Origin: Myxococcota bacterium
GTDB taxonomy: Bacteria > Myxococcota_A > UBA796 > JAJRTE01
Length of the DNA stretch: 64,000 nucleotides
Direction of reading: 5' to 3'
Assembly (NCBI GenBank): GCA_024278455.1
Contig: JAJRTE010000022.1
Coordinates: forward strand, 10,539-74,538
Below the pieces are notes generated by a model. That model did no database searches. It saw only the letters and a list, made by a program, of their open reading frames with translations, and had not been told where the DNA came from. Within the stretch, counting starts at the first letter, position 1. Every line of letters starts with the position of its first letter. This document shows, piece by piece, positions 1,836 through 60,588 of this stretch. Made by a program: the position numbers and the translations under genes.

Positions 1836-2303
1836 ATGAAGTGCCCATTCTGCAGCGTCCTGGATAGCAAGGTCGTGGACAGCCGTCTGTCCCGGGATGG
1901 CCGGATCGTCCGGCGGCGTCGCGAGTGCGAGGCCTGCTCCAGCCGGTTCACCACATACGAGCGCGTCGAGGAGATACTCCCGCTCGTCATCAAGAAGGAC
2001 GGCAGGCGGGAGGCCTTCGAAAGAGCAAAGGTGGTGGGAGGTATCCAGCGCGCGTGCGAGAAGCGTCCGATCAGCATCGACGCGATCGAGACCATCGCCG
2101 ACAGGCTCGAGCGGACCTTGCAAGAGCGGGGGGACAAGGAGATATCGACGTCGGTCATCGGCGAGGAGATCATGCAAGAACTCCAGGCGATGGATGATGT
2201 CGCTTATGTCCGGTTCGCTTCCGTCTACCGGCAGTTTGCAGACCTCCACCAGTTCATGCAGGAACTCAAGGCGATGTTGAAAGCCAAGGACCAGGCACGA
2301 TGA
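1836..2303 (+). CDS. nrdR: transcriptional repressor NrdR
   Basis: MKCPFC...Zn-ribbon plus ATP-cone, 155 aa; AAGGA SD. Confidence 0.93.
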
Positions 2304-2372
2304 GGTGTGTGCACGGCCTGCCGGCGACTCTGGAGAGGCCTGCGACGGGCGGACCCCTATCATGAGCGACTC

Positions 2373-3500
2373 ATGAGCGACGAGCGATTCATGCGCATGG
2401 CGTTGAGGTTGGCACGCAGGGGCCGGCCCAGCCCCAATCCTCGAGTCGGGGCTGTCATCGCCCGTGACGGAGAGGTGCTGGCCACCGGCTACCACCGCGC
2501 TGCTGGCGAACCCCACGCCGAAGCGATGGCGCTCGCCAAGCTCGACTTTCGCGCCCCGGGCGCCACCCTCTACGTGACCCTCGAGCCCTGCGTCCACTAC
2601 GGACGCACCCCGCCGTGCGCTGAATCCATCGTGTCGGCCGGAATCTCGGAAGTCGTCGCAGGCATGGTCGACCCCAACCCTCGAGTGCGCGGGCGCGGCA
2701 TCGAAAGGCTGCGCGAAGCCGGAATCCGCGTGCGCGTGGGGGTACTCGAGCAGGAATGCACGGACCTGAACCGCGGATTCATCAAGGTGATGACTCTGGG
2801 CCTGCCCCATCTCACCCTGAAGGTGGCTGCCACCGCCGACGGCAAGCTCGCCACGGTGGCAGGTGCTTCGCGTTGGATAACCTCCGGCGAGGCGCGCCGG
2901 GCAGTCCACCGGCTACGCGCCGACAGCGACGCGATCATCGTGGGATCCGGTACTGTCGCAGCAGACGACCCGAGGCTCACGGCGCGACACGGGGGCCGCC
3001 CCCGCGGCCGCCAGCCCCTCCGTGTCGTACTCGACAGCACCTTGAGGTGCCCGCAGGACGCCCTCGTGTTCACGGATCGCGCGGCCCCCACCCTCGTCTT
3101 CACCACCCCGGGTGCCGACTCCCGGAAGCGGGACGAACTCGAGACCAGGGGGGTGGAAGTCGCCGAAGTGCCCGCCGATATTGCTGGCAAGGTCGCGCTC
3201 CCGGCCGTGTTACGCAACCTCGCCGGCCGCGGCGTGCTCTATGCCCTGGCGGAACCGGGGAGCACACTCGCCTGGAGCCTGGCCCGATCCGGCTTCGTGG
3301 ACAGATACTGGTTCTTCCATGCACCGAAACTCTTCGGCGGGGCCCGCGCCCCCACCATGATGGGCGGTGAAGGCGTCGCCCGCGTCGAGGAGGCCGTTCC
3401 CTTGCGCTGGTCTCGCATACGTCGCATCGGGCAGGACGTCTTGCTCGAGGCCGTTCCGATGGACCGGGAGGACGGCCCCGATCGCGACACGGGAGAGTAG
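2373..3500 (+). CDS. ribD: bifunctional riboflavin biosynthesis deaminase/reductase RibD
   Basis: CDA deaminase motif HAEAMAL...PCVHYGRTPPC followed by RibD_C reductase domain; ORF opens at 2307 but ATG 2373 (MSDERFMRMAL) fits family N-terminus. Confidence 0.85.
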   Translation: MSDERFMRMALRLARRGRPSPNPRVGAVIARDGEVLATGYHRAAGEPHAEAMALAKLDFRAPGATLYVTLEPCVHYGRTPPCAESIVSAGISEVVAGMVDPNPRVRGRGIERLREAGIRVRVGVLEQECTDLNRGFIKVMTLGLPHLTLKVAATADGKLATVAGASRWITSGEARRAVHRLRADSDAIIVGSGTVAADDPRLTARHGGRPRGRQPLRVVLDSTLRCPQDALVFTDRAAPTLVFTTPGADSRKRDELETRGVEVAEVPADIAGKVALPAVLRNLAGRGVLYALAEPGSTLAWSLARSGFVDRYWFFHAPKLFGGARAPTMMGGEGVARVEEAVPLRWSRIRRIGQDVLLEAVPMDREDGPDRDTGE

Positions 3501-4166
3501 ATGTTCACGGGTATCATCGAAGACATCGGCACCTTGAGGCGCACCGCTCCGGCCAGCGGAGGCCGGCTGACCATCCAGACCGCGCTCCCTCTCGAGCACG
3601 TCAAGCTGGGAGACAGTATCGCCGTCTGTGGCGCCTGCCTGACCGTGGTCGCCATCGACCCGCCTACTTTCGACGCCGAAATCTCTCGAGAGACGGCTAC
3701 TCGCACCACGCTCGGCGCATTGCCGCCTGGAGCCCGTGTGCACCTCGAGAGGGCACTGCGATTCGCAGACCGGCTCGACGGCCACCTCGTGCTCGGACAC
3801 GTGGACGGTGTGGGCACGATTCGAGAGCGCAGGGTGGGCGAGGACTCCACGCACATGGAGATCGCAGCGCCCCCGGCGGTCAGCCGCTACCTTGTCGAGA
3901 AGGGATCCGTCGCCGTGCACGGGGTGAGTCTGACGGTGAACACACTGCGTTCCGACAGGTTCAGCGTGACAGTGGTGCCGTTCACAGCCGGCAGGACATT
4001 TCTGAATACACTGCCTGTCGGTGCTCGAGTCAACCTCGAGGCCGACATCGTGGGCAAGTATGTGGAGAGGCTGCTCCAGGGGCTTGGCACGCGCCGTGCC
4101 GGTGGTGGGCTGACCCTGGAGACCCTGGCCCGGAGCGGGTTCCTCGACGGCACGCGAGACGGGTGA
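3501..4166 (+). CDS. ribE: riboflavin synthase alpha subunit
   Basis: [10 protein letters not shown]...two lumazine-binding repeats; starts immediately after ribD TAG. Confidence 0.92.
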
Positions 4167-4168
4167 GA

Positions 4169-4208
4169 GCCGGCTCGAGGCGATGGTGCCGCGCGTGTCG
4201 AGCCGGGC
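4169..4208 (+). repeat. 10-bp near-perfect inverted repeat (GCCGGCTCGA ... TCGAGCCGG) in the ribE-ribBA intergenic region
   Basis: Stem arms at about 4169-4178 and 4198-4207 separated by 19 nt; no downstream T-run. Confidence 0.5.
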
Positions 4209-4300
4209 ATCGGGAGATCGTGATGGAGGCAGCGAAGAGCGTTCCATCCCCTGCCGGCAGCATGCCGAGCACGGGGGGAAGTGACAAGAGGAGTGGGAGC

Positions 4301-5494
4301 ATGACCGATTTCGAGCCGATGGCGGAACGCTCGGAGAAGCGGGTTCTGGAGGCCATCGAAGACATGAAGGCCGGCCGTTTCGTCATTCTGACCGACGACG
4401 AAGACCGGGAGAACGAAGGTGACCTGGTCCTGGCGGCGGAAAAGGTGACACCGGAGGCCATCAACTTCATGGCTCGGTACGGGCGCGGGCTCATCTGCCT
4501 CGCCCTGACCGAACACCGGGCCGAGGAGTTGCACCTGACGCCCATGGTGTCTCAGAACACCTCCCGGTTCGAAACGGCGTTCACGGTGTCGATCGAGGCC
4601 AAGAGCGGGGTGACGACCGGGATCTCTGCGGCGGACCGGGCGCACACGGTGCGCGTGGCCATCGACCCTAACACGCGCCCCGAACACCTTGCCCGCCCCG
4701 GACACATCTTTCCGCTGCGTGCTCGAGACGGCGGCGTGCTCGTGCGTACGGGGCAGACAGAGGGTTCCGTGGACCTCGCGAGGCTGGCCGGATTGACACC
4801 GGCCGCCGTGATCTGCGAAATCATGAATGACGACGGAACCATGGCGCGCCTGCCCGACCTCCTGGCATTCGGGCGCAGGCACAAGATTCGCATCTGCACC
4901 GTCGCCGACCTGATCCGCTTCCGACTGCGCAACGAGAGCCTGGTGCACCGCGTGGGCGAAGCTCGGGTCGAGACCGGGCGCGGGCCATGTACGGCGATCC
5001 TGTTCGGGTCCGACGTCAGTCCGGCATACCATCTGGCGATACAGATCGGTGAACCGTCCCCGGATCAGCCGGTTACGGTCCGGGTACACCGTGCATCCGT
5101 GCTCGAGGATGTGTTCGGGTGTTTCCAAGGGGCCAACACGGTATCGTTGAGTCGCGTGCTGGACATGATGTGGGATCAGGATGGCCCGGGTGTCGTGCTA
5201 TACTTGTATGCGGCGGGGCAGGACCCACGAGAACTGCGCAACCATTTCGAGGTGTTCCGGTACCAGGTCGAGCGTGGTTGCCCATTTTCGGAGGCTCGAG
5301 CTTCGGTCGGGTGGCGGCATGATCCGAAGGACTTCGGTATCGGCGCGCAGATACTGGCGAACCTGGGTCTGCACAGGATCAAGCTGGTGACCAACGCACC
5401 TTATCGGCTGCGCGGGATCGAGGGGCACGGGCTGGTAGTGGACGATTTCGTGACCATGGCGCCAACGACAGAACAAGAGGAAACAGAAGGATGA
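4301..5494 (+). CDS. ribBA: bifunctional 3,4-dihydroxy-2-butanone-4-phosphate synthase / GTP cyclohydrolase II
   Basis: [14 protein letters not shown] synthase motif and C-terminal GTP cyclohydrolase II domain; ATG 4301 preceded by AGGAG; ORF track opens at 4163 (alternative start 4223). Confidence 0.85.
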
Positions 5495-5982
5495 GTGAAC
5501 ACCTTGAAAAAGTCCGCGTCATCGAGGGGCGCCTCTCTGCAGAGGGTGCCCGGTTCGGTGTCATCGTTTCCCGTTTCAACACCTTCATCACCGAACGGCT
5601 GCTCGAGGGTGCCCTGGATGCGCTGCTGCGCATGGGGGCGACCCCTGGGAGTATCACGGTCGTTCGCACGCCCGGGTCGTGGGAGATCCCGCTGACCGCC
5701 AAGAAGCTTGCCGAATCGGGGGCCTTCGATGCCGTCATCTGTCTCGGCGCGGTGATTCGTGGGGGCACGCCCCATTTCGACTACGTGGCCAACGAGGTAT
5801 CCAAGGGCATCGCGAGCGTCAGCCTATCTTCGGGCATTCCCATCGTGTTCGGCGTGCTGACCACGGATTCGATCGAGCAGGCTGTCGAGCGGGCAGGGAC
5901 CAAGATGGGGAACAAGGGGTTCGAGGCCGCGGAGGCTGCCATCGAGATGGTCAACCTCTACCGCTCTTTGGACAACGTTTGA
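5491..5982 (+). CDS. ribH: 6,7-dimethyl-8-ribityllumazine synthase
   Basis: 163 aa, VIVSRFN...lumazine synthase signature; ATGA start/stop overlap with ribBA. Confidence 0.93.
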
Positions 5983-5999
5983 TTGTTGGGTGGTGTCGG

Positions 6000-6422
6000 A
6001 TGGGCAGTCGAAGGAAGGCACGGGAATACGCCGTCCAGTTGCTCTATCTCCTGGATTTCCGCTCCGGCGAGGATCTCGAGGAACTCGTCGAGAGCTTCTG
6101 GCAGGGCGAGTCGTTCCACGCCGAGGACAGGGCGTTCGCCGAGACCCTGGCACGCGGCACGCGCGAGCACCTGGAGGAGATCGACCGCATCATCGACACC
6201 CACGCCAACAACTGGAAACTCGCGCGGATGCCGATAGTGGACCGCAACATCATGCGGATGGGCGTGTTCGAACTGTGCCATGCGCCAGACTGTCCGGTGT
6301 CGGTGGTCATCAACGAAGCCATCGAGTTGGGCAAGCGGTTTTCCGGAAGCGAGGCAGCGCCGTTCATCAATGGCGTCCTGGACCGGGTCAGGCGCACCTG
6401 CAGGGGGGAGGACCGCCGATGA
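6000..6422 (+). CDS. nusB: transcription antitermination factor NusB
   Basis: MGSRRKAREYAVQLLYLLDF... NusB family, 140 aa; ATG at 6000 inside longer ORF-track frame 5679..6422. Confidence 0.9.
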   Translation: MGSRRKAREYAVQLLYLLDFRSGEDLEELVESFWQGESFHAEDRAFAETLARGTREHLEEIDRIIDTHANNWKLARMPIVDRNIMRMGVFELCHAPDCPVSVVINEAIELGKRFSGSEAAPFINGVLDRVRRTCRGEDRR

Positions 6423-6988
6423 CCGACGACATGATCACCGTCTCGTTTTGCCACGACGGGGTGCTCGACCGTATCCGGGACGTGGAAGCGATCGTGCTGG
6501 GCCTGTTCGAAGACGAGCGGCCGCTCAAGGGCATGACCGGCTTCGTGGACTGGCGCCTCCACGGCCTCCTGTCCCGCCTCGTCCTGCAGCAACGCCTGGA
6601 GGGCACCCTTCTCGAGGGGTGTCTGATGCCGTCTCGAGGCCGGCTGCCGATGGACATGGTGTTCCTGTTCGGGCTCGGGTCGCTGGAAGAACTATCTGTC
6701 CAGACATTCCAGCGCGTCGCATTCCAGGTCGTCGGGACCATGGCACGAGCACGTGTGGGCCACTTCGCCCTCTCCCTCTGGGACCTGACTCGAGGTCGCG
6801 TGGCCCCCGAGGAGGCGGCGAGAATCGTGCTGCGAGCATTCCTGTCCGACAGGAGACACCGGCCTCGAGGGGGACGCACGGCCGTCACTTTCGTCGAAAC
6901 CGGCCCCTGGGGTCACGCACTTCGAGACGCTTTTCTCAAGCTGGCCGAACGCAAGGACGAATTGCCGGTGCGGCTCGAGTTGCATTGA
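6419..6988 (+). CDS. hypothetical protein, leucyl-aminopeptidase (M17) N-terminal-domain-like, translationally coupled to nusB
   Basis: ATG 6419 overlaps nusB TGA (ATGA); 190 aa MTDDMITVSFCHDGVLDRIRDVEAIVLGLFEDE...pattern resembles Peptidase_M17_N/macro-like fold; ORF track frame 5990..6988 is longer but upstream part overlaps nusB. Confidence 0.5.
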   Translation: MTDDMITVSFCHDGVLDRIRDVEAIVLGLFEDERPLKGMTGFVDWRLHGLLSRLVLQQRLEGTLLEGCLMPSRGRLPMDMVFLFGLGSLEELSVQTFQRVAFQVVGTMARARVGHFALSLWDLTRGRVAPEEAARIVLRAFLSDRRHRPRGGRTAVTFVETGPWGHALRDAFLKLAERKDELPVRLELH

Positions 6989-17413: not shown

Positions 17414-17905
17414 ATGGACCTGGTGAGAATCCAGTCGATCGTGACCCCGAAAGTCGAAGCGCTCGGATACCGCGTCGTGGTCACCGAAATCGCCGGCAGG
17501 CGGCACGCACCGGTGCTGCGGGTGATCATCGAGCACGAAGACGAGGAAGCCAGGATTTCTCTTGACGACTGCGTGCGTGTCAGCCGTGCGCTGGGCGAGG
17601 TGCCGGGCCTCGATGCGCTTTTCCCGGGTTCCTACCACCTGGAAGTCTCGTCTCCCGGCTTGGAGCGACGACTGGTGGGAGAGCGAGACTTTCGCCGGTT
17701 CACGGGCAAGCGGGCGCGTATCTGGCTGGCAGAACCCAGGGAGGGACGACGGCGGTTTACCGGCAAGATCGCGGGCGTGCGAGACCGTGTACTGCAACTC
17801 GACATGGGCGGAACCACGGGATTGATCGTCATCCGGATGGACGAAATTTCGCGAGCGACCTTGAAACCCGAATATGCCGACCTGTTCGCGAATGGACAAG
17901 CCTGA
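17414..17905 (+). CDS. rimP: ribosome maturation factor RimP
   Basis: 163 aa, YHLEVSSPGLERRL signature (DUF150/RimP), classic position upstream of nusA. Confidence 0.9.
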   Translation: MDLVRIQSIVTPKVEALGYRVVVTEIAGRRHAPVLRVIIEHEDEEARISLDDCVRVSRALGEVPGLDALFPGSYHLEVSSPGLERRLVGERDFRRFTGKRARIWLAEPREGRRRFTGKIAGVRDRVLQLDMGGTTGLIVIRMDEISRATLKPEYADLFANGQA

Positions 17906-17993: not shown

Positions 17994-19508
17994 ATGATGT
18001 CGGAACTCGCCCGCGCGATCGACCAGATCGCCAAGGACAAGGGGATCCCGCGGGAGGTGTTGGTGGAAGCGTGCGAGAAGTCCATTCTTGCCGCCGCCAG
18101 GAAGATGCTCGGCCCGAACACCGATATCGAAGCCCAGTACAACGAGGAACTCGGTGAGGTGGAATTGTTCGAGTTCAGGACCGTTGTCGAGGAGATCGAG
18201 GACCACGAGGTGGAGATATCGCTCGAGGAGGCCAGGGAACTCGATCCCGGAGCCGAAGTGGGTGACAGTCTTGGTATCAAGGCCAACCTGGACGATTTCG
18301 GCAGGATTGCCGCTCAAACAGCGAAGCAGGTGTTGCTCCAACACGTTCGGGATGCCGAGAGGGAGTACATCTACAACGAGTACAAGGACCGGAAGGACGA
18401 ACTCATCACCGGTATCGTGCGGCGTTTCGAGAAGGCCTCCTACATCGTCGATCTTGGCAAGGGCGAGGCCCTGCTGCCTCCCAGGGAGCAGGCGCCCACC
18501 GAGTCCTACCGCCCGGGCGACCGTTTGCAGGCCTACGTGCTCGATGTCCTTCGTACCTCGAGGGGTCCCCAGATCATTATCTCGAGGTCCCACCCGAACC
18601 TCATACGGCGCCTTTTCGAGATGGAGGTCCCGGAGATATTCGAAGGCATTGTCCGGATCGAAGGTGTTGCGCGCGAGCCCGGATATCGCGCAAAGATCGC
18701 CGTCGCGTCGCGAGATTCGGACGTGTACCCCGTGGGTGCCTGTGTCGGCATGAAGGGGTCTCGAGTCCAGGCCGTGGTGCAGGAACTGCGTGGCGAGAAG
18801 ATCGACATCATTCCCTGGAGTATCGACCCGGCCAAGTTCGTTTGCAACGCCATTGCTCCCGCCTCGGTCAGCAAGGTCATCATCGACGAGGAGAGCCGCT
18901 CCATGGAGTTGATCGTCCCGGATGACCAGTTGTCGCTCGCGATCGGCAAGCGCGGCCAGAACGTCAGGCTTGCCGCCCAGTTGACGGGATGGCGGATCGA
19001 CATCATCGGCGAGACCAAGATCCAGGAGTTGAACCTCGCCGCTCGAGAGGAACTCAAGGCTATCGAGGGCTTCTCCGAGACGCTGATTGAGATCCTCGTG
19101 CGTCACGGCTACCGCCACATGACCGATGTCGCCGACTCTGATCCCGAAGAACTTGTCGACCTCCTTGGGCTCGAACTCGAGAGGGCCACCCAGATCGTGA
19201 ACAGGGCACGCGAACTCGTCGCTGAACGCGGCACGGCGCCGGACGGCACATTGAAGCCGCCCCCTGAAGAGGCGCCTCCCGGCGACGAAGCGGCACAGGA
19301 TGCTGTCCCGGAGGTGGTCGAACCCGGCGAACCGGCTGTAGCGAGCCCTTCCGTGGGCCTCGAGGAACCAACCGAGGTTGCCGGCAGCGAGCCCGAGCCT
19401 GTCGCCGCGAGCGAGATCGAGGAACGTGGCGGAATATCGAACGCCAGCCCCGGGGTACCGCAGGCAGCGCCCGAAGGAGACGAGGAGAACGCAGACCGAA
19501 CCGAGTAA
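17994..19508 (+). CDS. nusA: transcription termination/antitermination factor NusA
   Basis: 504 aa, N-terminal domain, S1, tandem KH, acidic C-terminal tail; GGAG SD 10 nt upstream. Confidence 0.95.
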
Positions 19509-19571
19509 ATCGAGTAAAAGATGAGCCTCGCTCCGGCGAAAAACGGAATGCCACGACGGCGAGGAGACGGC

Positions 19572-20141
19572 ATGCGCCGGTGCCTGGGGTGCGGGTTGTC
19601 GGCCCCCCCGGGCGATCTGATCCGCCTGTCGGCCCCGGCGGGCACACCGCAGGTCGACATCAGGCGGCTCGCCGGGGGCCGCGGAGCGCATGTTTGCTAC
19701 AGCAGGAAGTGCCTCGAGGAGGCATTCAAAAAGCGGCGGTTGAGCAGGGCGTTGAAGGTATCCCACGTGGACGCCACCGCGGGCGACATCACAGCCGCGG
19801 TCGTACACCAGTTGAACCGACTCCTGGCATGCGAACTCGAGCGCGCCGCGAGAATGGGAGCGTTGATCGTCAAGCAGGAACGTGTTCGGATGGCGCTCGA
19901 TGCCGGCTCGGTCCGGCTGCTCCTCACCGCTTCGGACGACCGGGGCGACGCGGACGGGCTGGCCAGGGCCTTGTGGCGGCGTTGCCGCGTGCCGGCATTC
20001 CCGGTTCGACCCGACGCCGTCATCCGCCTGCTCCCGAAAGCGTGGAACGATCACGACGTGGTAGCTGTCCAGAAGCGGCCGTGCACATTGCGCGTCGAAA
20101 AGGTGCTCAGGCACCTTGACGCCATGGGCTGGCTCGACTAA
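19572..20141 (+). CDS. YlxR (DUF448) RNA-binding protein fused to L7Ae/YlxQ-like domain
   Basis: RRCLGCG...GRGAHVC DUF448 motif then GALIVKQERVRMALDAGSVRLLLTASD L7Ae-like segment; GGAGA SD before ATG 19572 (ORF track 19521). Confidence 0.75.
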   Translation: MRRCLGCGLSAPPGDLIRLSAPAGTPQVDIRRLAGGRGAHVCYSRKCLEEAFKKRRLSRALKVSHVDATAGDITAAVVHQLNRLLACELERAARMGALIVKQERVRMALDAGSVRLLLTASDDRGDADGLARALWRRCRVPAFPVRPDAVIRLLPKAWNDHDVVAVQKRPCTLRVEKVLRHLDAMGWLD

Positions 20142-20246: not shown

Positions 20247-21554
20247 ATGGGAAAGAGTGACCTGATTGACAAGATCAACGCCAGGGTCAGGAGCCAGATG
20301 AGTTCCCTGACCGCCCGCACGTCGCCTCGAGCCGCTACCGGCGAGCGGGAAGCCCGGGGTGCCGGGCGGGCTGAGAAGCGTATCACCAACGCGCGCACGG
20401 GCAAGGTCGTCGTCCGCCGCCGGGCTCAGCGCCCCCCGCCTACGGAGACCGAGCCAGGCGCGACGGATGCTCCCGCGACGGCGGCCGGCCACGAAGAGAC
20501 CGTCCCGGGCACGGTCGGGACGGCCCCCGTGGTTCGGCGGCAGCCCCAGGGTGCCATCGTGGAGGAGGTCCAGCCTGGCGCCCCGGAGGCCGTTGCCGAC
20601 TCCACCGCCGGCGAAGCACTGCCGGGCCATGAGCAAGAGGCGCAGCCATCGGCCACGGCCGGCCCTGCCGATGAAGCAGCCAGCCAGGTCGTCGCCCCGG
20701 AAAGCCTCGAGGAAGCCCCTCGAGACGCCGGTGCACAGGTGCCGGACGACGCGGAGACATCTGCCGGGGAGCAGCCGGCAGCCGAAGGCACGGCGGAGCC
20801 TTCCAGCAGTCCTGCCCCTGTCGAGACTGCCGCCGAGGCCCCGGAGCCAAGCAGCGACGACGCCACGCCCCAGCAGGAAGCCGATTCTGGCGCCGCCGAA
20901 GCCGGAGAGATGGCTTCGAGCGCACCAGCCGGCACTACCACCGAGTCAGCCGGCCAGCAATCCGGCGCACGGGGAGCCGCCCGGACACCAGCAAGCATCG
21001 AGGACGTGCTTGAGCGCGAACTGGGGCCCCTGGTGCAGCAGCGCAAGGCCGTGATCATCGGCGACGCACCGGTGCAGCAGCCCAGTGCCGGCAGGACCGT
21101 GGGCTCCCGATCGGTTTCCAGGCGCCCAAAGACCGCCACGGTCATCAAGCGCGCCACTCCTCAGACACCGGAAGAGATCAAGCGGGTCGCGAACGAAGAT
21201 CGCAAGAGAGAAAAGGGAGTGGTGAAACTCGTTTCGCGGGGCCGGGTCGGCAAGCCGGAGGATCGGACCATCGGCAGGGCCGCTCGCCCGCGCAAGGGTT
21301 CCCGGCGCAAGGAGGTCATACAGAGGCGGGATATTGGCGCCAACGGCGAGCATACCTATCGCAGGCAACGCAGGGTCGTCGCCAGGCGCGAGAGGGCCTC
21401 GACCCAACTGACCACGCCCAAGGCCATCAAGAGAATCATCAAGATCGAAGAGGCGATCTCCGTCGGAGAACTCGCCCACCGAATGGGCGTGAAGGCAGCA
21501 GCCGTCATCAAGAAGCTCATGGGCCTGGGCATGATGGCCAACATCTCCCAGTAG
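20247..21554 (+). CDS. infB: translation initiation factor IF-2, N-terminal region, terminated by in-frame TAG
   Basis: Ala/Pro/Glu-rich IF2 N-domain ending ...[32 protein letters not shown]; same frame as downstream G-domain ORF. Confidence 0.8.
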
Positions 21555-21611
21555 CTCGACTTCGACACCGCCTCGCTGGTCGCTGGCGAATTCGGCTACG
21601 AAGTCGAGAAC

Positions 21612-23177
21612 GTGGCTTTCGACGAATCGGCCTTGTTGGATATCGCCCCCGTGGACCCGGCCAAGTGTCTGCCTCGTCCCCCGGTGGTGACCGTCATGGG
21701 TCACGTCGATCATGGCAAGACCACCTTGTTGGACGCGATCCGCAACACCGACGTCGCCAGCCGGGAAGCCGGGGGAATCACCCAGCACATCGGCGCGCAC
21801 ACGGTCAACATCGACGCTGGCCGCATCGTCTTCCTGGACACCCCTGGTCATGAAGCTTTCACCGCCATGCGCGCGCGGGGTGCCCAGGCGACCGACATCG
21901 TCGTCCTCGTGGTGGCCGCGGACGACGGGGTCATGCCGCAAACCGTCGAAGCCATCAACCATGCCAAAGCGGCAGGGGTTCCGATCATTGTGGCCATCAA
22001 CAAGATCGACAAGGCCGGAGCATCTCCGGATCGCGTCAAACAGAAGTTGGCCGACTACGACTTGGTCCCTGAGGAGTGGGGCGGAGACACCATTTTCATC
22101 GAAGTATCGGCCAAGGAGGGGACCGGGATCAACGAGTTGCTCGATGTCATCCTGCTGCAAGCCGATATGTTGGAGCTGTCTGCCGATCCAGACCGCAGGG
22201 CCCAGGGCATTGTCATCGAGTCCCAGTTGGACAAGGGGCGTGGTCCCGTATGCACGGTCATCGTACAGCAGGGCACCTTGAAGCGAGGTGATGTCGTCGT
22301 GGTGGGCTCTGAGTTCGGCCGGATAAGAGCCATGACGAACGACAAGGGAACGTGGATCAAGGAGGCACTCCCATCCACGCCGGTGGAGGTCCAGGGACTG
22401 TCCGGCGTACCGAATGCAGGCGATCCCCTGGCCGTGCTGCCGGACCTGGAAACAGCCAAGAGAATCGCCCAATTCCGCGCTGAGCGGGCACGTCAAGAGC
22501 ACCTCGCCCGGAGTTCCAAGGTCACTCTCGAGGACCTCTATTCCCAGTTGCAGCAGCAGGAAGTCATGGAGCTGAAGATCGTTCTCAAGGCCGATGTGCA
22601 AGGCTCCATCGAGGCCATCAGGAAGGCCATCGGTGATCTGACTACCGAGAAGGTGAAGACGGTCATCCTTCACGCAGCAGTGGGAACCGTCAGCGAGGGC
22701 GACGTCACGCTGGCAAGTGCGTCCAATGCCATCGTCCTGGGATTTAATGTCGGCGTGGATACCAAGGCAGCGATCGTCGCGGAGCAGGAAGGTGTGCAGA
22801 TCAACACCTACAACGTGATCTACGAAGCGATCGACGAAATCAGAAAGGCCATGCACGGCCTCCTGAAACCGGTGTTCAAGGAGCATGTCACCGGACACGC
22901 GGAGGTGCGCGAGACGTTCCGCATCCCCAAGATTGGACTCATCGCCGGTTCGTCCGTCGTCGACGGAAAGATCAGCCGCGGCTCCATGGTCAGGGTGCTT
23001 CGCGACGGCGAGGTCATGTGGGAAGGCCGCCTCGTTTCCCTCCGCCGCTTCAAGGAGGACGTGCGCGAAGTGGAAAAGGGCTACGAGTGCGGTATCTGTC
23101 TGGACAGTTTCAATGACGTACGCCTCGGCGACGTGATCGAAGCGTTCATGCTCGAGGAGACGCAACCATCGATGTGA
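21612..23177 (+). CDS. infB: translation initiation factor IF-2, G-domain to C-terminus (downstream of in-frame TAG; GTG at 21612 is first possible restart)
   Basis: [17 protein letters not shown]1 motif, DTPGH, NKID, domains II-IV through C-terminal ...[12 protein letters not shown]; frame identical to 20247..21554. Confidence 0.85.
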
Positions 23178-34817: not shown

Positions 34818-37052
34818 TCACCCGCCCGAGGCCTTCTCGCCGGCCTGCTCCCGCGACTCCCGGCCGAAACGCGACCGGTACAGAGCCTCGAGGGCGCTCG
34901 CGACCTGGTCCCTGCCGGTCTTGCGCGCCAGTCGAATGAGGTGCGTGACGGCTCGAGGCGTGTAGGGCCCCTTCTCGAGCGCCGTCTTGTAGGCATCGAA
35001 GGCTCCGCCCGTGTCGCCGGCGGCCTCGCGGGACTCGCCCACCGCGACCCATCGACCGGCCTCCAGGGTCCCGTAGAGCAGTGCGGGCCCGGCCTCTCGA
35101 GGCTGTCCTGGCTGTGCGCCGGGCACATTGGGATCGAACACGGCGGCGTAGGGTACCGGGACGGGTGGCACGCGAGCCCCGGGGTCGTCGAGCACCTTGA
35201 AAACCCGGAAGAAGTCGTTCTGGTACACGAGTTGGAACCCGGGCGTGTCCTTTGGGGTGTAGTGAAGGTGGTAGGCTGCCTCCTCCCCGGTGATATCCAG
35301 GTGGTCGGCCACGTACCGGTAGGACATCCAGGGGTCCACGCGGAGCAGGAAGTTGGCCTCGTACACCAGGTAGGTAGCATCGAGCTTCCTGGCGAACGCA
35401 TGGAGGTCCTGGAGAGGCCCGAACAGCTTCAGGTTGAACGCCTCGAACCGCAGTACGACGTCGCACTCGAAAAAGCTGTGCAGATTGGTGTTCCGGTCGA
35501 GGTAGGTGAACAGGTGGGGAGACAGGGCCCAGGACGCCAGGAACACGTCTTTCGGGCTTGTTGAGTGGGTGATCCACCGGGAGAGTCCATCCATCGAGCG
35601 CACGTCGTAGACGAGGCCCGCGTCGTCCTCGGAAGCGCGGAGGCCCAGCCCGGAATCCGCGCCAACGCCCGTCCAGGCCGCCGCGCTGCTGGCCACCAGG
35701 GCCGCCCCGAGCACGCCGATCGCCAGCTTGCGGCGATGTTTGGCTCGCTCGAGGATCGTGCGTGCGCCGAGCGCCACCGCCGGGGTGAGGAACATGGCCA
35801 GGAACGTCCCGAACTTACGGAACAGCAGGTAGCCCACGATGAACCCGGCCACCCCGAGCACCAGGAACGCCGTGCCGAATCGATCGGAGGCAACCGTCTC
35901 ATCCCGAGCGCCTCGGCCCAGCCTGCGGAACAGCATGACGCACAACAAGGCCGGCAGCGCAAAATCCCGCGTGACCATGGCGAGCGTCGGGGACCGGTAG
36001 TTGCCGGTCCAGTAGTGCCGGGCGTGGATGGTCAGCAGCGCCGGGTCGGCGGGCTTCATCCCCAGGAATCGGAGTTTGGCTATCAGCGTGTCCCAGGCGT
36101 GGTCGTAGGAGAGCGGTCCGGGGAGCGCCAGGTACAACCCCGCGGTCGCGCCAACGAGCAGGGCGGCTCTGGCCGCCGGGTGGGCGTTCCAGGATGGTCG
36201 CAGCCGCGCCGCGACGCAGACCAGCACCAAGGCGACGGTCAAGGCAGCCTGGGGAGACCCCCAGTACCGATCGATCCGGAGGGCCACCGGCAGAAGGAGC
36301 GACACGAGCAGCGGCGGCAAGGACAGCGCGTACACCGCCGCTCGAGTTTTCTTGCCGGGAGGCCGCGCCAGGACGAACAGCGCCAAGGATCCGAGTACGA
36401 AGAGTTGGTAGAAGGTGGTGACCTTCCAGGCGAAGTGGCATAGCAGCAAGGCCGCTCCGGAAAGCCACGCGAACACCTCCCCGCGGTCGCGCCGAAAGTG
36501 CGCGTACAGGGCCGCGACGTGGAGAGCGAAGAATGGGAGTGCCACGTTCTCGCGGTAGACCACGAGTCCCGTGCTGCGGTCGAGCGCCGGGGGGAGGGTG
36601 ACGTAGAGTGCCACCGCGAACAGCGCCGCCCATTTCCGCCTGGACGCCTCGAGGGAGACCCAGAAGAGGGGAAACACGATGACGCAGAACACGTAGGGAG
36701 TCGCGGTCCGCACGAACGTCTCGAGACGCGGGGGGGCGAACGCTCGAGCGAGCAGACCCAGTACATACTCCTGGACAACCGTGTCCCGGTCTGGGTCGAA
36801 CCCGTCCGGCCACTGGATCTGCCGGTCCGGGTCGGGCAGGGGCTTGCCTTCGGCGATGAAACGTATCCCGCGGTAATGCTGGGCGGACTCGAGCCAGAAC
36901 GGGGCGAGGGGATTGAGCAACGTCTGCTCGAGCCGGTGGGCACGCACCTGGACCCCGGCGAAGTAGACCGCCAGCAGCGCCGCGGCGATCAAGAGTGTCG
37001 TACCGGTCTTGGCGGAGGGGGCTCGGAACATCACGTCGCGCCGGAATCCCAT
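34818..37052 (-). CDS. large polytopic membrane protein, GT-C-fold glycosyltransferase-like (PMT/ArnT/DUF2723 class) with C-terminal soluble domain
   Basis: About 12 predicted TM helices followed by about 300-aa soluble C-terminal region; ORF track extends to 37883 but N-terminal 277 aa are Arg/Pro-rich non-protein-like; ATG 37052 precedes first TM. Confidence 0.6.
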   Translation of the reverse strand: MGFRRDVMFRAPSAKTGTTLLIAAALLAVYFAGVQVRAHRLEQTLLNPLAPFWLESAQHYRGIRFIAEGKPLPDPDRQIQWPDGFDPDRDTVVQEYVLGLLARAFAPPRLETFVRTATPYVFCVIVFPLFWVSLEASRRKWAALFAVALYVTLPPALDRSTGLVVYRENVALPFFALHVAALYAHFRRDRGEVFAWLSGAALLLCHFAWKVTTFYQLFVLGSLALFVLARPPGKKTRAAVYALSLPPLLVSLLLPVALRIDRYWGSPQAALTVALVLVCVAARLRPSWNAHPAARAALLVGATAGLYLALPGPLSYDHAWDTLIAKLRFLGMKPADPALLTIHARHYWTGNYRSPTLAMVTRDFALPALLCVMLFRRLGRGARDETVASDRFGTAFLVLGVAGFIVGYLLFRKFGTFLAMFLTPAVALGARTILERAKHRRKLAIGVLGAALVASSAAAWTGVGADSGLGLRASEDDAGLVYDVRSMDGLSRWITHSTSPKDVFLASWALSPHLFTYLDRNTNLHSFFECDVVLRFEAFNLKLFGPLQDLHAFARKLDATYLVYEANFLLRVDPWMSYRYVADHLDITGEEAAYHLHYTPKDTPGFQLVYQNDFFRVFKVLDDPGARVPPVPVPYAAVFDPNVPGAQPGQPREAGPALLYGTLEAGRWVAVGESREAAGDTGGAFDAYKTALEKGPYTPRAVTHLIRLARKTGRDQVASALEALYRSRFGRESREQAGEKASGG

Positions 37053-37229
37053 CGGAGGTTTGCAGCCGCTCGCAGCACGGCCGGGCCAGGGTCGTGTGAC
37101 CGGTTTTAGCACCAGGGAGCACGCAAGCAAAGCAAAACCGAAATGTTCTGGATCGTGCCGCCTGCTCGTGCCATCCTGTAGCCGGGCCGAAGATCGCGGC
37201 AACATTTCGAATTCGGGAGAGGAAATACC

Positions 37230-38084
37230 ATGAAACTCTACAGTATCAGGGGGAATTCTCAACGGCTCGACGGCGGCGCCATGTATGGAAACTGCCCCAG
37301 GGCGCTGTGGTCCCGGTGGAGCCCCCCGGACGAAGCACACCGGATCGATCTTGCCTGTCGCGCGCTGCTCGTCGAGGACGGCGACCTGTTGATTCTCGCC
37401 GAAACCGGCATCGGGGCCTACATGGAGCCACGACTCAGGGAGCGTTTCGGCGTCGTGGAATCGGAGCACATGCTCCTCGAGGCCCTGGACGAAGTAGGGG
37501 TAGCGCCATCGGACATCACCCACGTCGTGCTTTCTCACCTCCATTTCGACCATGCCGGGGGGCTGCTCACGGCCTACCAGGAGGGTGCCGAGCCGGAGTT
37601 GTTGTTCGAGCGGGCGACCTACATGGTCGGCGAACGGGCGTTCGAGCGAGCGAGAGCCCCCCATCTCCGCGACCGGGCGTCGTTCATTCCAGGCCTGACC
37701 GAACGTCTGCGTCGCTCCGGGCGACTGAAGCTTGTCAAGCACGCCCACGACCATTCGTTCGGCCCTCGCTACCGGTTCCGGTTCACGGATGGCCACACCC
37801 CGGGCTCCACCCACCTGGAGATCCTCGAGCCGCGGCATGTTCTTTTCGCAGCGGACCTCATTCCCGGCACCCCGTGGCTCCACCTCCCGATTACGATGGG
37901 CTACGACCGGTTCCCGGAACTGCTGGTAGACGAAAAACGCAGGCTACTCGAGGCAGTAGAGAAGCGGGGGGGGTTCCTGTTCTATACCCACGATCCGAAG
38001 TGGGCCATGAGCCGGGTCGCGCGAGACGAGAAGGGCCGGTTCAGACCGGTCGACGCCATCGAGACCCTGGATGGATGGCCGTAG
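37230..38084 (+). CDS. MBL-fold metallo-hydrolase
   Basis: HLHFDHAGG metallo-beta-lactamase motif; GGGAGAGGA SD 6 nt before ATG. Confidence 0.85.
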
Positions 38085-40521: not shown

Positions 40522-42819
40522 TCAGGGGACCCCGCCGGGAGACCCAGAGCGCGATGCCGGTAGGACTCCCTCGAGACGCGCCGCCTGCTCCACCGATTCG
40601 AAGACGGCGTCCGACGGTTCGGTGAACTCGGTAATGGTGTAGGGATAGACATCGCTGACCGCCGTGGTCCCCAGCACCTCCTCTGCCACGAACCCGAGCA
40701 ACGCCTTGCGCATGGTCGCGACCAGGGCGGAGTCGGTGTCCGGAGCGGCGCAGAACATGTCCGACGGAATCGCGCGCGTCCCGGTCAGAATCTGCACTTT
40801 GCGCTGGAACCCCTGGTCCACGTGGAAGGCCCGCATAAAGGCCTCGGAGTAGACCGCGGCCACATCGCAGCGCCCGGCGAGGAGGTCCATGATGGCCTGC
40901 ACGTGGGCGCCGCTGAACACGACTCGCGAGAACAGCGTGTCCGGGTCGTACCCCTGTTCGCGCAGGTAGAGTCTTGGAAAGAGGTATCCGCTGGTCGAAC
41001 CCCGGTCCACGTAGCAAATGCGCTTGCCCGCCAGGTCCGCCACCGTCTCGATGCCGCTCTCCGCCGGCACGACGAGCAACCCTTGTGACGCGCTGTCATA
41101 TCGTGCATAAGCGACCGGCGTTACATCGGACCGTGCGTGCCGGGCCAGTACATACTGCACCGGTGGGAGCATGCCGAAGTCGTAGGATCCGGCCTCGAGC
41201 CCGGTCCGCAATGCCCGGTAGCTGGGTGCGACCTCCACGTCGATGGGCCGGGCGATACTGGCCTCGAGGTAGCGTAGCAGGGGTGCGAGTTCGCGTGCGG
41301 CGTCGGTGGTCGGGGAGGCGGGATACAGGCCGATTCTCACCACGGGTCCTGCCGGACGCACGGCAGGTGTGGGCATGGTTGCAAGGGTCAGGGCGGTGAC
41401 GAGGATCAGGCCAAGGGCGACCCCCACGGCCGGCGCCTTCCAGCCCACTCTGGCAGCCAACCGCCGGAGCACGCTTGCCCACGGCCGGGCGGCGCGGCCG
41501 AACACGGGCACATCCGGCACACCACCCCGCTCGGCTCCTCTCCCGCCCGTACCAAGGCGATCCACGCCGGCCTGCGCTCGAGACGCGCCCGATTCGGAAG
41601 CCACGAGCCGGGTGTACAGCGCCTCCAGGCGTTCAACGGCCTGCTTCGATGACGGGCGCTCGGCAGCCACTTTCCGGAGGCACTGGTCGATCAGCGCGGC
41701 GAGGTCCTTGGGCAGGTCCCCGGCGACCTGGGAGACCGAGGGCACCGGCTCGAGGCCGGCCACCGCATCCGGGATGTGTTGGAGCGGGACCCCATGATAG
41801 GGACGCCGCCCGGTCACCAACTGGTACAGAACAAGCCCGAAGGCCCACATGTCGGTCTCGGGACCTATCGGCTCCTCCCGCCACTGTTCCGGCGCCATGT
41901 AGGCGGGCGTACCCAGGAATCGGCTCTTCACCGTGGTCGATTCGCCCCCAGCCAGGCTCTGGAGCCCGGACGCGGTGACGCGAACGTCCTCCATCTTCGC
42001 ACCAACGCCGTCGCCGGTGGACGCCAGTCCCTTGGCAAGGCCGAAGTCGAGCACGCGCAACCGGCCGTCAGCGGGCAGCATGATGTTGCCAGGCTTGAGA
42101 TCCCGGTGCAGCACGCCGTGCTGATGTGCTTCGGCGAGCGCTCGAGCAATCGGCAGGCCCAGCCGAATGGCCTCCTCGGCGCTCGGCACGGTCCGGGCCA
42201 TGTGCTCGCGCAGCGTCAAGCCCTCGAGGTACTCGAGCGCCATGTACGGGCGCCCGGCATGCTCCCCGACGGCATAGATGGAGACGATGTGTGGGTGGTT
42301 GAACCGTGCCGTGGTGCGTGCCTCGAGGAGGAAGCGCTGGCGAGTGGCATAGGAGCCGAGGTAGCCCGGGGAGATCACCTTGAGGGCCACGGGCCTGCCG
42401 AGGGTATCGTCTCGAGCCAAGTAGACCTCTCCCATACCGCCCCGGCCGACCAGGCGCTCGACAACGAAGTGATCCACGACGGTGCCCGGGGCCAACGGCG
42501 CCATGCCAGGGGCCGGGGTCGCCAGCGTCCGGGTCACGGTCGCGGCCGAAACCTCCATGCCCGAAGCGGCGGACAGGGTGTCGACGAGCGCCCGGCAACG
42601 CACGCACTGTTGCAGGTGCCGGCCGATGGCAGACGCCTCATCGAGTGGCACGATCCCATCCAGGACCTGCTGGATCGTGTCGGGGTCGAGGTGTACATGA
42701 TCGGCATCGACGGGGGGAGTGTGCTTCCCGGCCTCGTCGCCGGGCTGAGCCGAACATGCGGGCTGCTCGCCCATGTCGATCGGCACGCCCTGTCCTGGTG
42801 CGTCGTCTCGATCTGTCAC
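40522..42819 (-). CDS. Ser/Thr protein kinase with N-terminal zf-HC2 (anti-sigma-like) segment, TM helix and periplasmic PhnD/SsuA-like phosphonate-binding-protein domain
   Basis: Kinase subdomains GRGGMGEVY, ALK, HRDLKPGNIM, DFGLAK, APE; N-terminal H..C..C motif; C-terminal 300 aa matches PBP phosphonate-binding fold; GTG 42819 has GAGAGG SD (ORF track TTG 42834). Confidence 0.8.
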   Translation of the reverse strand: MTDRDDAPGQGVPIDMGEQPACSAQPGDEAGKHTPPVDADHVHLDPDTIQQVLDGIVPLDEASAIGRHLQQCVRCRALVDTLSAASGMEVSAATVTRTLATPAPGMAPLAPGTVVDHFVVERLVGRGGMGEVYLARDDTLGRPVALKVISPGYLGSYATRQRFLLEARTTARFNHPHIVSIYAVGEHAGRPYMALEYLEGLTLREHMARTVPSAEEAIRLGLPIARALAEAHQHGVLHRDLKPGNIMLPADGRLRVLDFGLAKGLASTGDGVGAKMEDVRVTASGLQSLAGGESTTVKSRFLGTPAYMAPEQWREEPIGPETDMWAFGLVLYQLVTGRRPYHGVPLQHIPDAVAGLEPVPSVSQVAGDLPKDLAALIDQCLRKVAAERPSSKQAVERLEALYTRLVASESGASRAQAGVDRLGTGGRGAERGGVPDVPVFGRAARPWASVLRRLAARVGWKAPAVGVALGLILVTALTLATMPTPAVRPAGPVVRIGLYPASPTTDAARELAPLLRYLEASIARPIDVEVAPSYRALRTGLEAGSYDFGMLPPVQYVLARHARSDVTPVAYARYDSASQGLLVVPAESGIETVADLAGKRICYVDRGSTSGYLFPRLYLREQGYDPDTLFSRVVFSGAHVQAIMDLLAGRCDVAAVYSEAFMRAFHVDQGFQRKVQILTGTRAIPSDMFCAAPDTDSALVATMRKALLGFVAEEVLGTTAVSDVYPYTITEFTEPSDAVFESVEQAARLEGVLPASRSGSPGGVP

Positions 42820-43001
42820 GCGTTCCTCTCGCAAGCTGTCCGGGGGCGGCCCGGTTGCCGAAGTGTCATGCGGTCTACCTGCCGGTTTCAGGCTAACACT
42901 CCGGCTCGGTGCCAGTCAAGGTGGAGGGCGGCGCCGACGAACGCGTACCGCACCCTGTTCAGGAAACGGGGTGAGCTTGCCGAACCGGAAACTGGTCTGG
43001 C

Positions 43002-59974: not shown

Positions 59975-60588
59975 TCAATCCTCCCGGAAGTAGATGTAGA
60001 GGTAGGCGACCGGGGTGGATACGTTGTTCTGCCAGGAGTAGAGGGTGTTGTTGGCGTGGAGCATGCTCAGTTGCCAGCAGTTGGTGTACCACCAGCCCCC
60101 GTTGTAGCCCACGTTGTCCCGGGCACAGTTGTACACCCAGATGTCGTTGTCACTGTCGTGGGTCGTGAACCCCTGTCCCCGCACATCCGCCATGGTGTTG
60201 TACCCTGGAACACGGCTTGCCCAGTCGATGGCGTAGGCGGTATCCGGGCCGCCGATGGAGAAGTCATCCATTCGGAGGTCGAAGCTGCTCATGCCGGCGT
60301 CGAGGATCTGCTTACAGGACACTCCCAACGCGCACACGCCTCCGGGTTCGGGCCGGATCGCCGGGTCGCTGTCGTTGCAGTCGGTGCCCCCGCATTCCGC
60401 GTCGGAGTAGCCGTCTCCGTCCGCGTCGTGTCATCGTCCCCGGGTACGGTCGCGTCGTCGTCCTCGAGGGGGGCGGTTTCTTCGGCAGGTGGCACGGTGG
60501 GGCTGGACGCATCGTCGTCGGCTGGAGGGCAACCGGCGAGAAGCAGGTCGGCCAGGAGCAGGCAGGGGGCAAGGTCCTACCGCGTCAT
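59975..60588 (-). pseudogene. disrupted lipoprotein gene with D-x-DGDG Cys-rich motif and fibrinogen-related (FReD-like) C-terminal domain
   Basis: ATG 60588 MTR then in-frame TAG (60577-60579) then lipoprotein signal DLAPCLLLADLLLAGC; frameshift near 60420-60440 joins ...LEDDDATVPGDDD to ADGDGYSDAECGGTDCNDSDPAIRPE...; C-terminal FTTHDSDNDIWVYNCARDNVGYNGGWWYTNCWQLSMLHANN matches FReD FSTWDNDND...NCA...GGWW..C signature. Confidence 0.65.

Follow-up and report, generated by a model that had tools for sequence, protein, structure and literature searches.

The infB gene, which encodes translation initiation factor IF2, is interrupted by a single in-frame TAG codon in the 64-kb stretch of Myxococcota bacterium DNA analyzed here (contig JAJRTE010000022.1 of assembly GCA_024278455.1; the whole of this stretch is called the window below). 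In our view the TAG is probably an error of the consensus or assembly in one metagenome-assembled contig, or else a minority allele. A special decoding mechanism is less likely than an error in the sequence or a mutation of very recent origin, and no new mechanism is required to account for the TAG. In the scenario we favor, the single base at 21553, a C to A change, would be wrong, or unrepresentative of the population, and would have become fixed in the consensus, while the cell would make an ordinary 976-aa IF2 with serine or another sense residue at codon 436. A preliminary description of the sequence had listed three options, namely an error, a recent nonsense mutation followed by re-initiation, and readthrough, and these turned out to be the right ones to weigh. 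Three observations tip the balance towards an error or an allele of very recent origin: TCG as the ancestral codon, the lack of decay in the gene, and a precedent in the sister lineage, the TAG codons of its dnaK gene.

The infB reading frame extends from 20247 to 23177 on the plus strand (976 codons plus a terminal TGA). Our translation of its 977 codons revealed a single internal stop, the TAG at 21552-21554 (codon 436), in agreement with the frame originally described as continuous but for this codon. IF2 homology crosses the TAG without a break; in a gapless alignment with E. coli IF2 (PDB 3jcj chain f), the TAG column corresponds to V348. The earlier observation that other IF2 proteins have a sense residue at this site, with homology resuming after it, also holds, the two closest relatives having serine. 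The identity of the gene is supported by Pfam matches to IF2_N, GTP_EFTU, EF-G_D2, IF-2 and GTP_EFTU_D2, which span the full profiles from GTP_EFTU onwards, and by a match to E. coli IF2 with E = 2e-198. Downstream of the stop, the domains expected of IF2 follow in the order GTPase domain G2, with a DTPGH motif and the P-loop GHVDHGKT (21699-21722, plus strand, 49 codons downstream of the TAG), then EF-G_D2, IF-2 (C1) and GTP_EFTU_D2 (C2). The gene also lies in the canonical nusA-ylxR-infB context, preceded by rimP (17414-17905), nusA (17994-19508) and ylxR (19521-20141), and followed by a DUF503 gene. What the infB gene of the window lacks, owing to the TAG, is a single open reading frame (ORF) that includes the G1/IF2_N domain. 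As a separate observation, a rare substitution was seen at codon 518 (21798-21800), in an otherwise highly conserved G-domain motif that reads ...HIGAH in the window; His is found here in 2 and Tyr in 114 of 116 homologues.

The TAG had been placed between the N-domain and the G-domain, but it in fact falls inside the conserved IF2_N/G1 domain: the last 34 residues of the N-terminal piece (21450-21551, plus strand) match positions 2 to 36 of the 53-position PF04760 profile. The ORF listing divides infB into 20190/20247-21554 and 21612-23177, and the two halves exist as separate database proteins, one of 435 aa (P0121; 20247-21554, plus strand) and one of 521 aa (P0001; 21612-23177, plus strand). 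The latter starts at a GTG, contains domains G2-G3-C1-C2 and is the candidate re-initiation product considered below. Both proteins are NCBI-only, come from one contig (78,067 bp) and form singleton clusters in a collection of ~15 billion proteins. We compared this arrangement with infB in 75 other species-representative genomes, chosen for having enough sequence upstream of the P-loop. The gene was open for at least 136 codons upstream of the P-loop (median 408) and was interrupted there in 0/75 cases. In this sample, where the open stretch is never shorter than 136 codons, IF2 without G1 therefore does not occur as a natural form.

The ancestral state of the interrupted codon could be read from the relatives of the gene. 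The nearest one, P0002, is 85% identical over the conserved region and is encoded in both available assemblies of one population of a sister lineage, L081 (GCA_964418585.1; NCBI) and L082 (ENA). The P0002 locus and the window have the gene order rimP-nusA-ylxR-infB-DUF503-SPOR-LysM-dprA in common, and the rimP-nusA-ylxR-infB order was also the same in L083 when compared with L081 and L082. At the site in question, P0002 reads ...ANISQSLDVDTASL..., with a TCG codon opposite the TAG of the window. A second relative, P0003 (68% identical), has serine in this column too, and the N-terminus encoded by infB in the window agrees with both proteins. The comparison of infB in related genomes, suggested in the preliminary description, therefore gave TCG in the nearest relative, serine in the next and a TAG in neither. 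The TCG codon of P0002, together with the serine of P0003, indicates that the TAG arose by one C to A transversion at 21553, the ancestral codon at 21552-21554 being, on this comparison, TCG (Ser). We infer that the base at 21553 is either wrong or unrepresentative of the population.

The TAG column is variable in 116 further IF2 proteins, where we found proline (48), leucine (22), serine (15), valine (12), phenylalanine (10) and alanine (6), with methionine and histidine likewise occurring in other IF2 proteins. Named neighbours of the window IF2 include Desulfuromonas, Geobacteraceae, Thermodesulfobacteriota and Myxococcota. No other protein with at least 90% identity to it was found among ~15 billion sequences, and scanning the metagenome collection for the exact DNA pattern, the variable base being set to N, gave 0 matches. 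A metagenome scan with the N-terminal part recovered one relative (L084, 76%), on a contig ending 7 codons short of the site, and a scan of genome contigs gave matches at 53-60% identity only, swamped by universal motifs. In the protein and metagenome collections searched, the TAG allele is present in a single assembly only, and the species has no further sequence there.

We next consider the constraint on the gene either side of the stop. Lineage-specific changes were counted in the window versus the sister, using P0003 as the outgroup. Upstream of the TAG, where the N-terminal part is of low complexity, the counts were 37 vs. 21, respectively, and for the C-terminal part they were 25 vs. 20. 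The 19 codons that separate the TAG from the following in-frame start (LDFDTASLVAGEFGYEVEN; 21555-21611, plus strand) are fully conserved at the protein level and gave 0 vs. 0; 14/19 of these columns are identical in the window, P0002 and P0003, with no change specific to the window. Relaxed selection was considered and rejected: the 37 vs. 21 and 25 vs. 20 counts were judged, without a formal test, to be not clearly different, and near-invariant columns behaved normally, with the window deviating at 2/172 in an alignment of 117 IF2 proteins and one of the two deviations being common with the sister. The N-terminal ORF has no frameshift and no further stop, and its conserved blocks are kept relative to P0002 and P0003. 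Judged by its sequence, infB is not adapted to a stop and there is no decay in either half. This lack of adaptation means that the stop is translated as sense, is extremely young or is absent from the real genome.

The sister lineage offers a precedent for the last of these. Over 23 kb, L081 and L082 are distinguished by one 3-nt indel and 18 substitutions, half of which (nine) fall within 115 bp of dnaK. In the L081 copy (21569-21683), they include three in-frame TAGs (GAG>TAG, AAG>TAG and AAG>TAG) and five radical replacements. Each of these eight changes is a transversion yielding T or A, with C>A accounting for two. The dnaK genes of L082 and of the window keep the conserved residues at the positions altered in L081. 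A TAG was created by 3/9 differences in the cluster, more than random substitution would give, and the cluster has the appearance of a read full of errors that entered the consensus. The comparison between the L081 gene and the intact L082 gene thus indicates that metagenome-assembled genomes (MAGs) of this clade do carry spurious TAGs in essential genes.

The remainder of the window was examined with a self-trained gene call, which gave about 50 genes in the 64 kb. By Pfam profile coverage, every other family-matched gene looks full length, leaving infB as the sole interrupted gene. One broken gene among about 50 is in keeping with a lone erroneous base and speaks against decay or recoding of the genome.

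Several points nonetheless weigh against an error. The rest of the window looks like a clean assembly, with no frameshifts, and there is no cluster of errors around the infB TAG, unlike in L081 dnaK. A real nonsense allele would not necessarily be lethal, by analogy with E. coli, where IF2 lacking residues 1-387 supports growth (PMC12919033). Lastly, the TAG is followed by a hairpin predicted by folding (21555-21608, plus strand), with a perfect 10-bp stem and a 34-nt loop, in which CTCGACTTCG (21555-21564) pairs with CGAAGTCGAG (21599-21608). The first base of the hairpin directly follows the TAG, and 3 nt separate its last base from the GTG at 21612. Such perfect 10-bp stems (loop of at most 45 nt) number only five in the 64 kb, making its position a mild coincidence that an error leaves unexplained.

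We therefore looked at the hairpin itself. The residues encoded by its arms, LDF(D) and (Y)EVE, are conserved in IF2 proteins. When the region was recoded synonymously with the codon usage of the genome, stems of 10 bp or more arose in 1.9% of the recodings and an equally or more stable fold in 4.7%, and the 141-nt fold of the region downstream of the TAG had a z-score of -1.26. The stem is absent in L081 and L083. The hairpin is probably a by-product of the LDF...EVE codons. A function as a recoding signal appears unlikely: the hairpin is not conserved, is marginal once the amino-acid sequence is controlled for and has no Rfam match. We also rejected template switching or a fold-back library artefact as the source of the TAG: by eye, the stem could not be lengthened with either TAG or TCG, and a fold-back copy of the 3' flank (its reverse complement) would read GTT, not TAG.

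Instead of an error, the TAG could be a genuine nonsense mutation of very recent date, an unlikely though not negligible alternative. Termination would release the 435-aa fragment, and re-initiation at GTG 21612, through translational coupling or 70S scanning, would produce a 521-aa G2-G3-C1-C2 protein with enough IF2 activity for survival. This GTG is the first in-frame start after the TAG, 57 nt downstream. The 521-aa ORF begins there, as had been proposed, and the database gene caller picked the same codon. A ribosome terminating at the TAG would open the hairpin, exposing the region just upstream of the GTG. Alignment to 3jcj chain f places GTG 21612 at about residue 368 of E. coli IF2 and the ORF at about residues 368-890; it therefore contains all of the E. 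coli construct lacking residues 1-387 (delta-G1), which sustains growth (PMC12919033).

However, no Shine-Dalgarno-like motif was found in the 22 nt upstream of GTG 21612, in a genome that uses such motifs: many genes of the window are preceded, at 5-9 nt, by GGAGG or AGGAG. The start with a Shine-Dalgarno sequence close to the stop that re-initiation would call for is thus absent, and an adapted restart site at this codon was rejected on this ground. The equivalent valine codon is GTC in L081 and GTG in L083, so the GTG at 21612 reads as ordinary synonymous variation. The 19 codons that would go untranslated are perfectly conserved and the N-terminal ORF is undecayed, requiring the allele to be extremely young. 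None of the 75 other genomes (0/75) lacks G1, and the hairpin, largely due to the LDF...EVE codons, is absent in relatives. The known cost of losing G1 also argues against re-initiation. According to a 2026 preprint (PMC12919033), which also cites a delta 1-294 IF2 from Laalami et al. 1991, E. coli living on plasmid-borne delta 1-387 IF2 grows, but loses ~25% of its growth rate at 30-37°C and ~50% at 25°C, at 42°C or at pH 8. With a loss of 25-50% of the growth rate even upon expression from a plasmid, such an allele should not reach a majority; a truncated IF2 could keep cells alive, but should not dominate a natural population.

Readthrough of a real TAG, at a level sufficient to yield full-length IF2, appears improbable. 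The decoding tRNA would be a CUA suppressor encoded elsewhere or a near-cognate tRNA, and the 3' hairpin, which abuts the TAG, might help. If the TAG were translated through, both halves and the 19 codons between them would be expected to stay conserved, as they are, and with P, L, S, V, F, A, M and H all accepted in this column, almost any inserted residue should do. Nevertheless, no tRNA gene was found in the 64-kb window, 13 genes of the window depend on TAG to terminate, and the closest relatives have a sense codon at the site. Bacteria usually read through UAG at a basal level of about 1% or below, which is probably too low for an abundant factor. A special stop context was also considered and rejected: the C at position +4 of the infB TAG is the commonest context of genuine TAG stops in the window as well (5/13), and is not specially leaky. 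We likewise give little credence to the broader proposal that the TAG is both real and fixed, with IF2 made in an unusual way, either G1-less from GTG 21612 after the hairpin is opened or by hairpin-promoted UAG readthrough.

Programmed recoding, in which UAG would be read as pyrrolysine or another residue by means of a dedicated signal, or in a TAG-sense genetic code, is very improbable. The one point in its favor is a stem-loop right after the UAG, loosely like the placement of PYLIS/SECIS elements; some deltaproteobacterial lineages do encode a Pyl system. The stops of the window argue otherwise. TAG terminates 13 of about 50 genes, not counting the infB fragment; the other genes have many TGA and a few TAA stops. 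The TAG-terminated genes include ribD (stop at 3500), a GNAT/rimI-like gene (17251), the DUF503 gene (23602) and dprA (27183), the four for which a TAG stop had been reported. The lengths of three products match those of the L081 orthologues (95 vs. 95 aa for DUF503, 340 vs. 342 aa for the SPOR-domain protein and 372 vs. 371 aa for DprA, respectively in the window and L081), showing that these proteins end where the sister's do. Genome-wide reassignment of TAG was rejected on these grounds and because infB alone, of about 50 genes, has an in-frame TAG, bearing out the earlier view that it is unlikely. The infB TAG is not conserved in the orthologues at 85% and 68% identity, and the hairpin is neither conserved nor significant given the amino-acid sequence (p about 0.02-0.05). 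No Rfam family was detected in the whole 64 kb at the gathering threshold, with nothing relevant around the TAG at E <= 10, and no pyl-like gene or tRNA was found in the window. Finally, infB is not a methylamine methyltransferase gene. It is equally hard to believe that this infB is a newly inactivated pseudogene with a second, intact copy elsewhere in the genome, as it sits in the canonical rimP-nusA-ylxR-infB context common to the sister genome and has no other lesion, and as duplicate infB genes are rare in bacteria.

Some other features of the window deserve mention. An operon-like row of genes, nrdR-ribD-ribE-ribBA-ribH-nusB (1836-6422, plus strand), has no flavin mononucleotide (FMN) riboswitch. 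Downstream of nusB, a 189-aa ORF (6419-6988, plus strand) matches Peptidase_M17_N only (profile positions 1-112 of 129), with no catalytic M17 domain after it; it could be either a stand-alone N-domain protein or a gene remnant. Two ORFs on the minus strand have weak matches to families best known from eukaryotes, one of 1021 aa (34818-37883) to Dpy19 (E = 5e-8) and one of 120 aa (59975-60337) to Fibrinogen_C (E = 4e-7). A 770-aa protein encoded on the same strand (40522-42834) combines a Ser/Thr protein kinase domain with a C-terminal phosphonate-type periplasmic binding domain (Phosphonate-bd, full profile), and this fusion is possibly a ligand-sensing kinase.

The consequences differ according to the status of the TAG. 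If it is an error, the database proteins of 435 and 521 aa should be merged into one IF2, and infB, beside dnaK of the sister MAG, illustrates how consensus errors in MAGs break essential genes. If it is real, a free-living bacterium would be able to survive with an IF2 split inside the conserved G1 domain. This would extend the laboratory result in E. coli, where G1 can be lost, though at a cost, and re-initiation or readthrough in an essential gene would be directly testable. A G1-less IF2 would then be a natural counterpart of delta-G1, and a readthrough IF2 would be a rare instance of an essential translation gene in bacteria whose stop codon is bypassed.

Four known systems can be compared with the interrupted infB. 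As in pyrrolysine decoding with a PYLIS-like stem-loop, an in-frame UAG is directly followed by a stable stem-loop. The window differs, however, in the gene family concerned, in a UAG that is not conserved, in a hairpin that is neither conserved nor significant, in having no pyl gene or tRNA, and in the common use of TAG as a terminator. The parallel drawn in the preliminary description with E. coli IF2 beta and gamma holds insofar as an internal in-frame infB start would give an N-terminally shorter IF2, but is otherwise weak. IF2 beta and gamma are natural isoforms made from internal in-frame starts at codons 158 and 165, which lie upstream of G1, leave this domain in place and need no stop, whereas GTG 21612 (about residue 368) follows a premature stop and would delete G1. 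The engineered truncated forms of E. coli IF2 come closer, in that the 521-aa product would likewise consist of G2-G3-C1-C2 and be slightly longer than the viable delta 1-387 protein. They were, however, expressed from plasmids with engineered starts, while the window has no Shine-Dalgarno sequence and a break within G1 rather than at its edge. The last comparison is with consensus errors in MAGs. Whereas L081 dnaK contains a cluster of error-like changes, the infB TAG is one isolated substitution; yet, as in such errors, it is a single-base, frame-preserving change, seen in one assembly, in a gene that is otherwise fully constrained.

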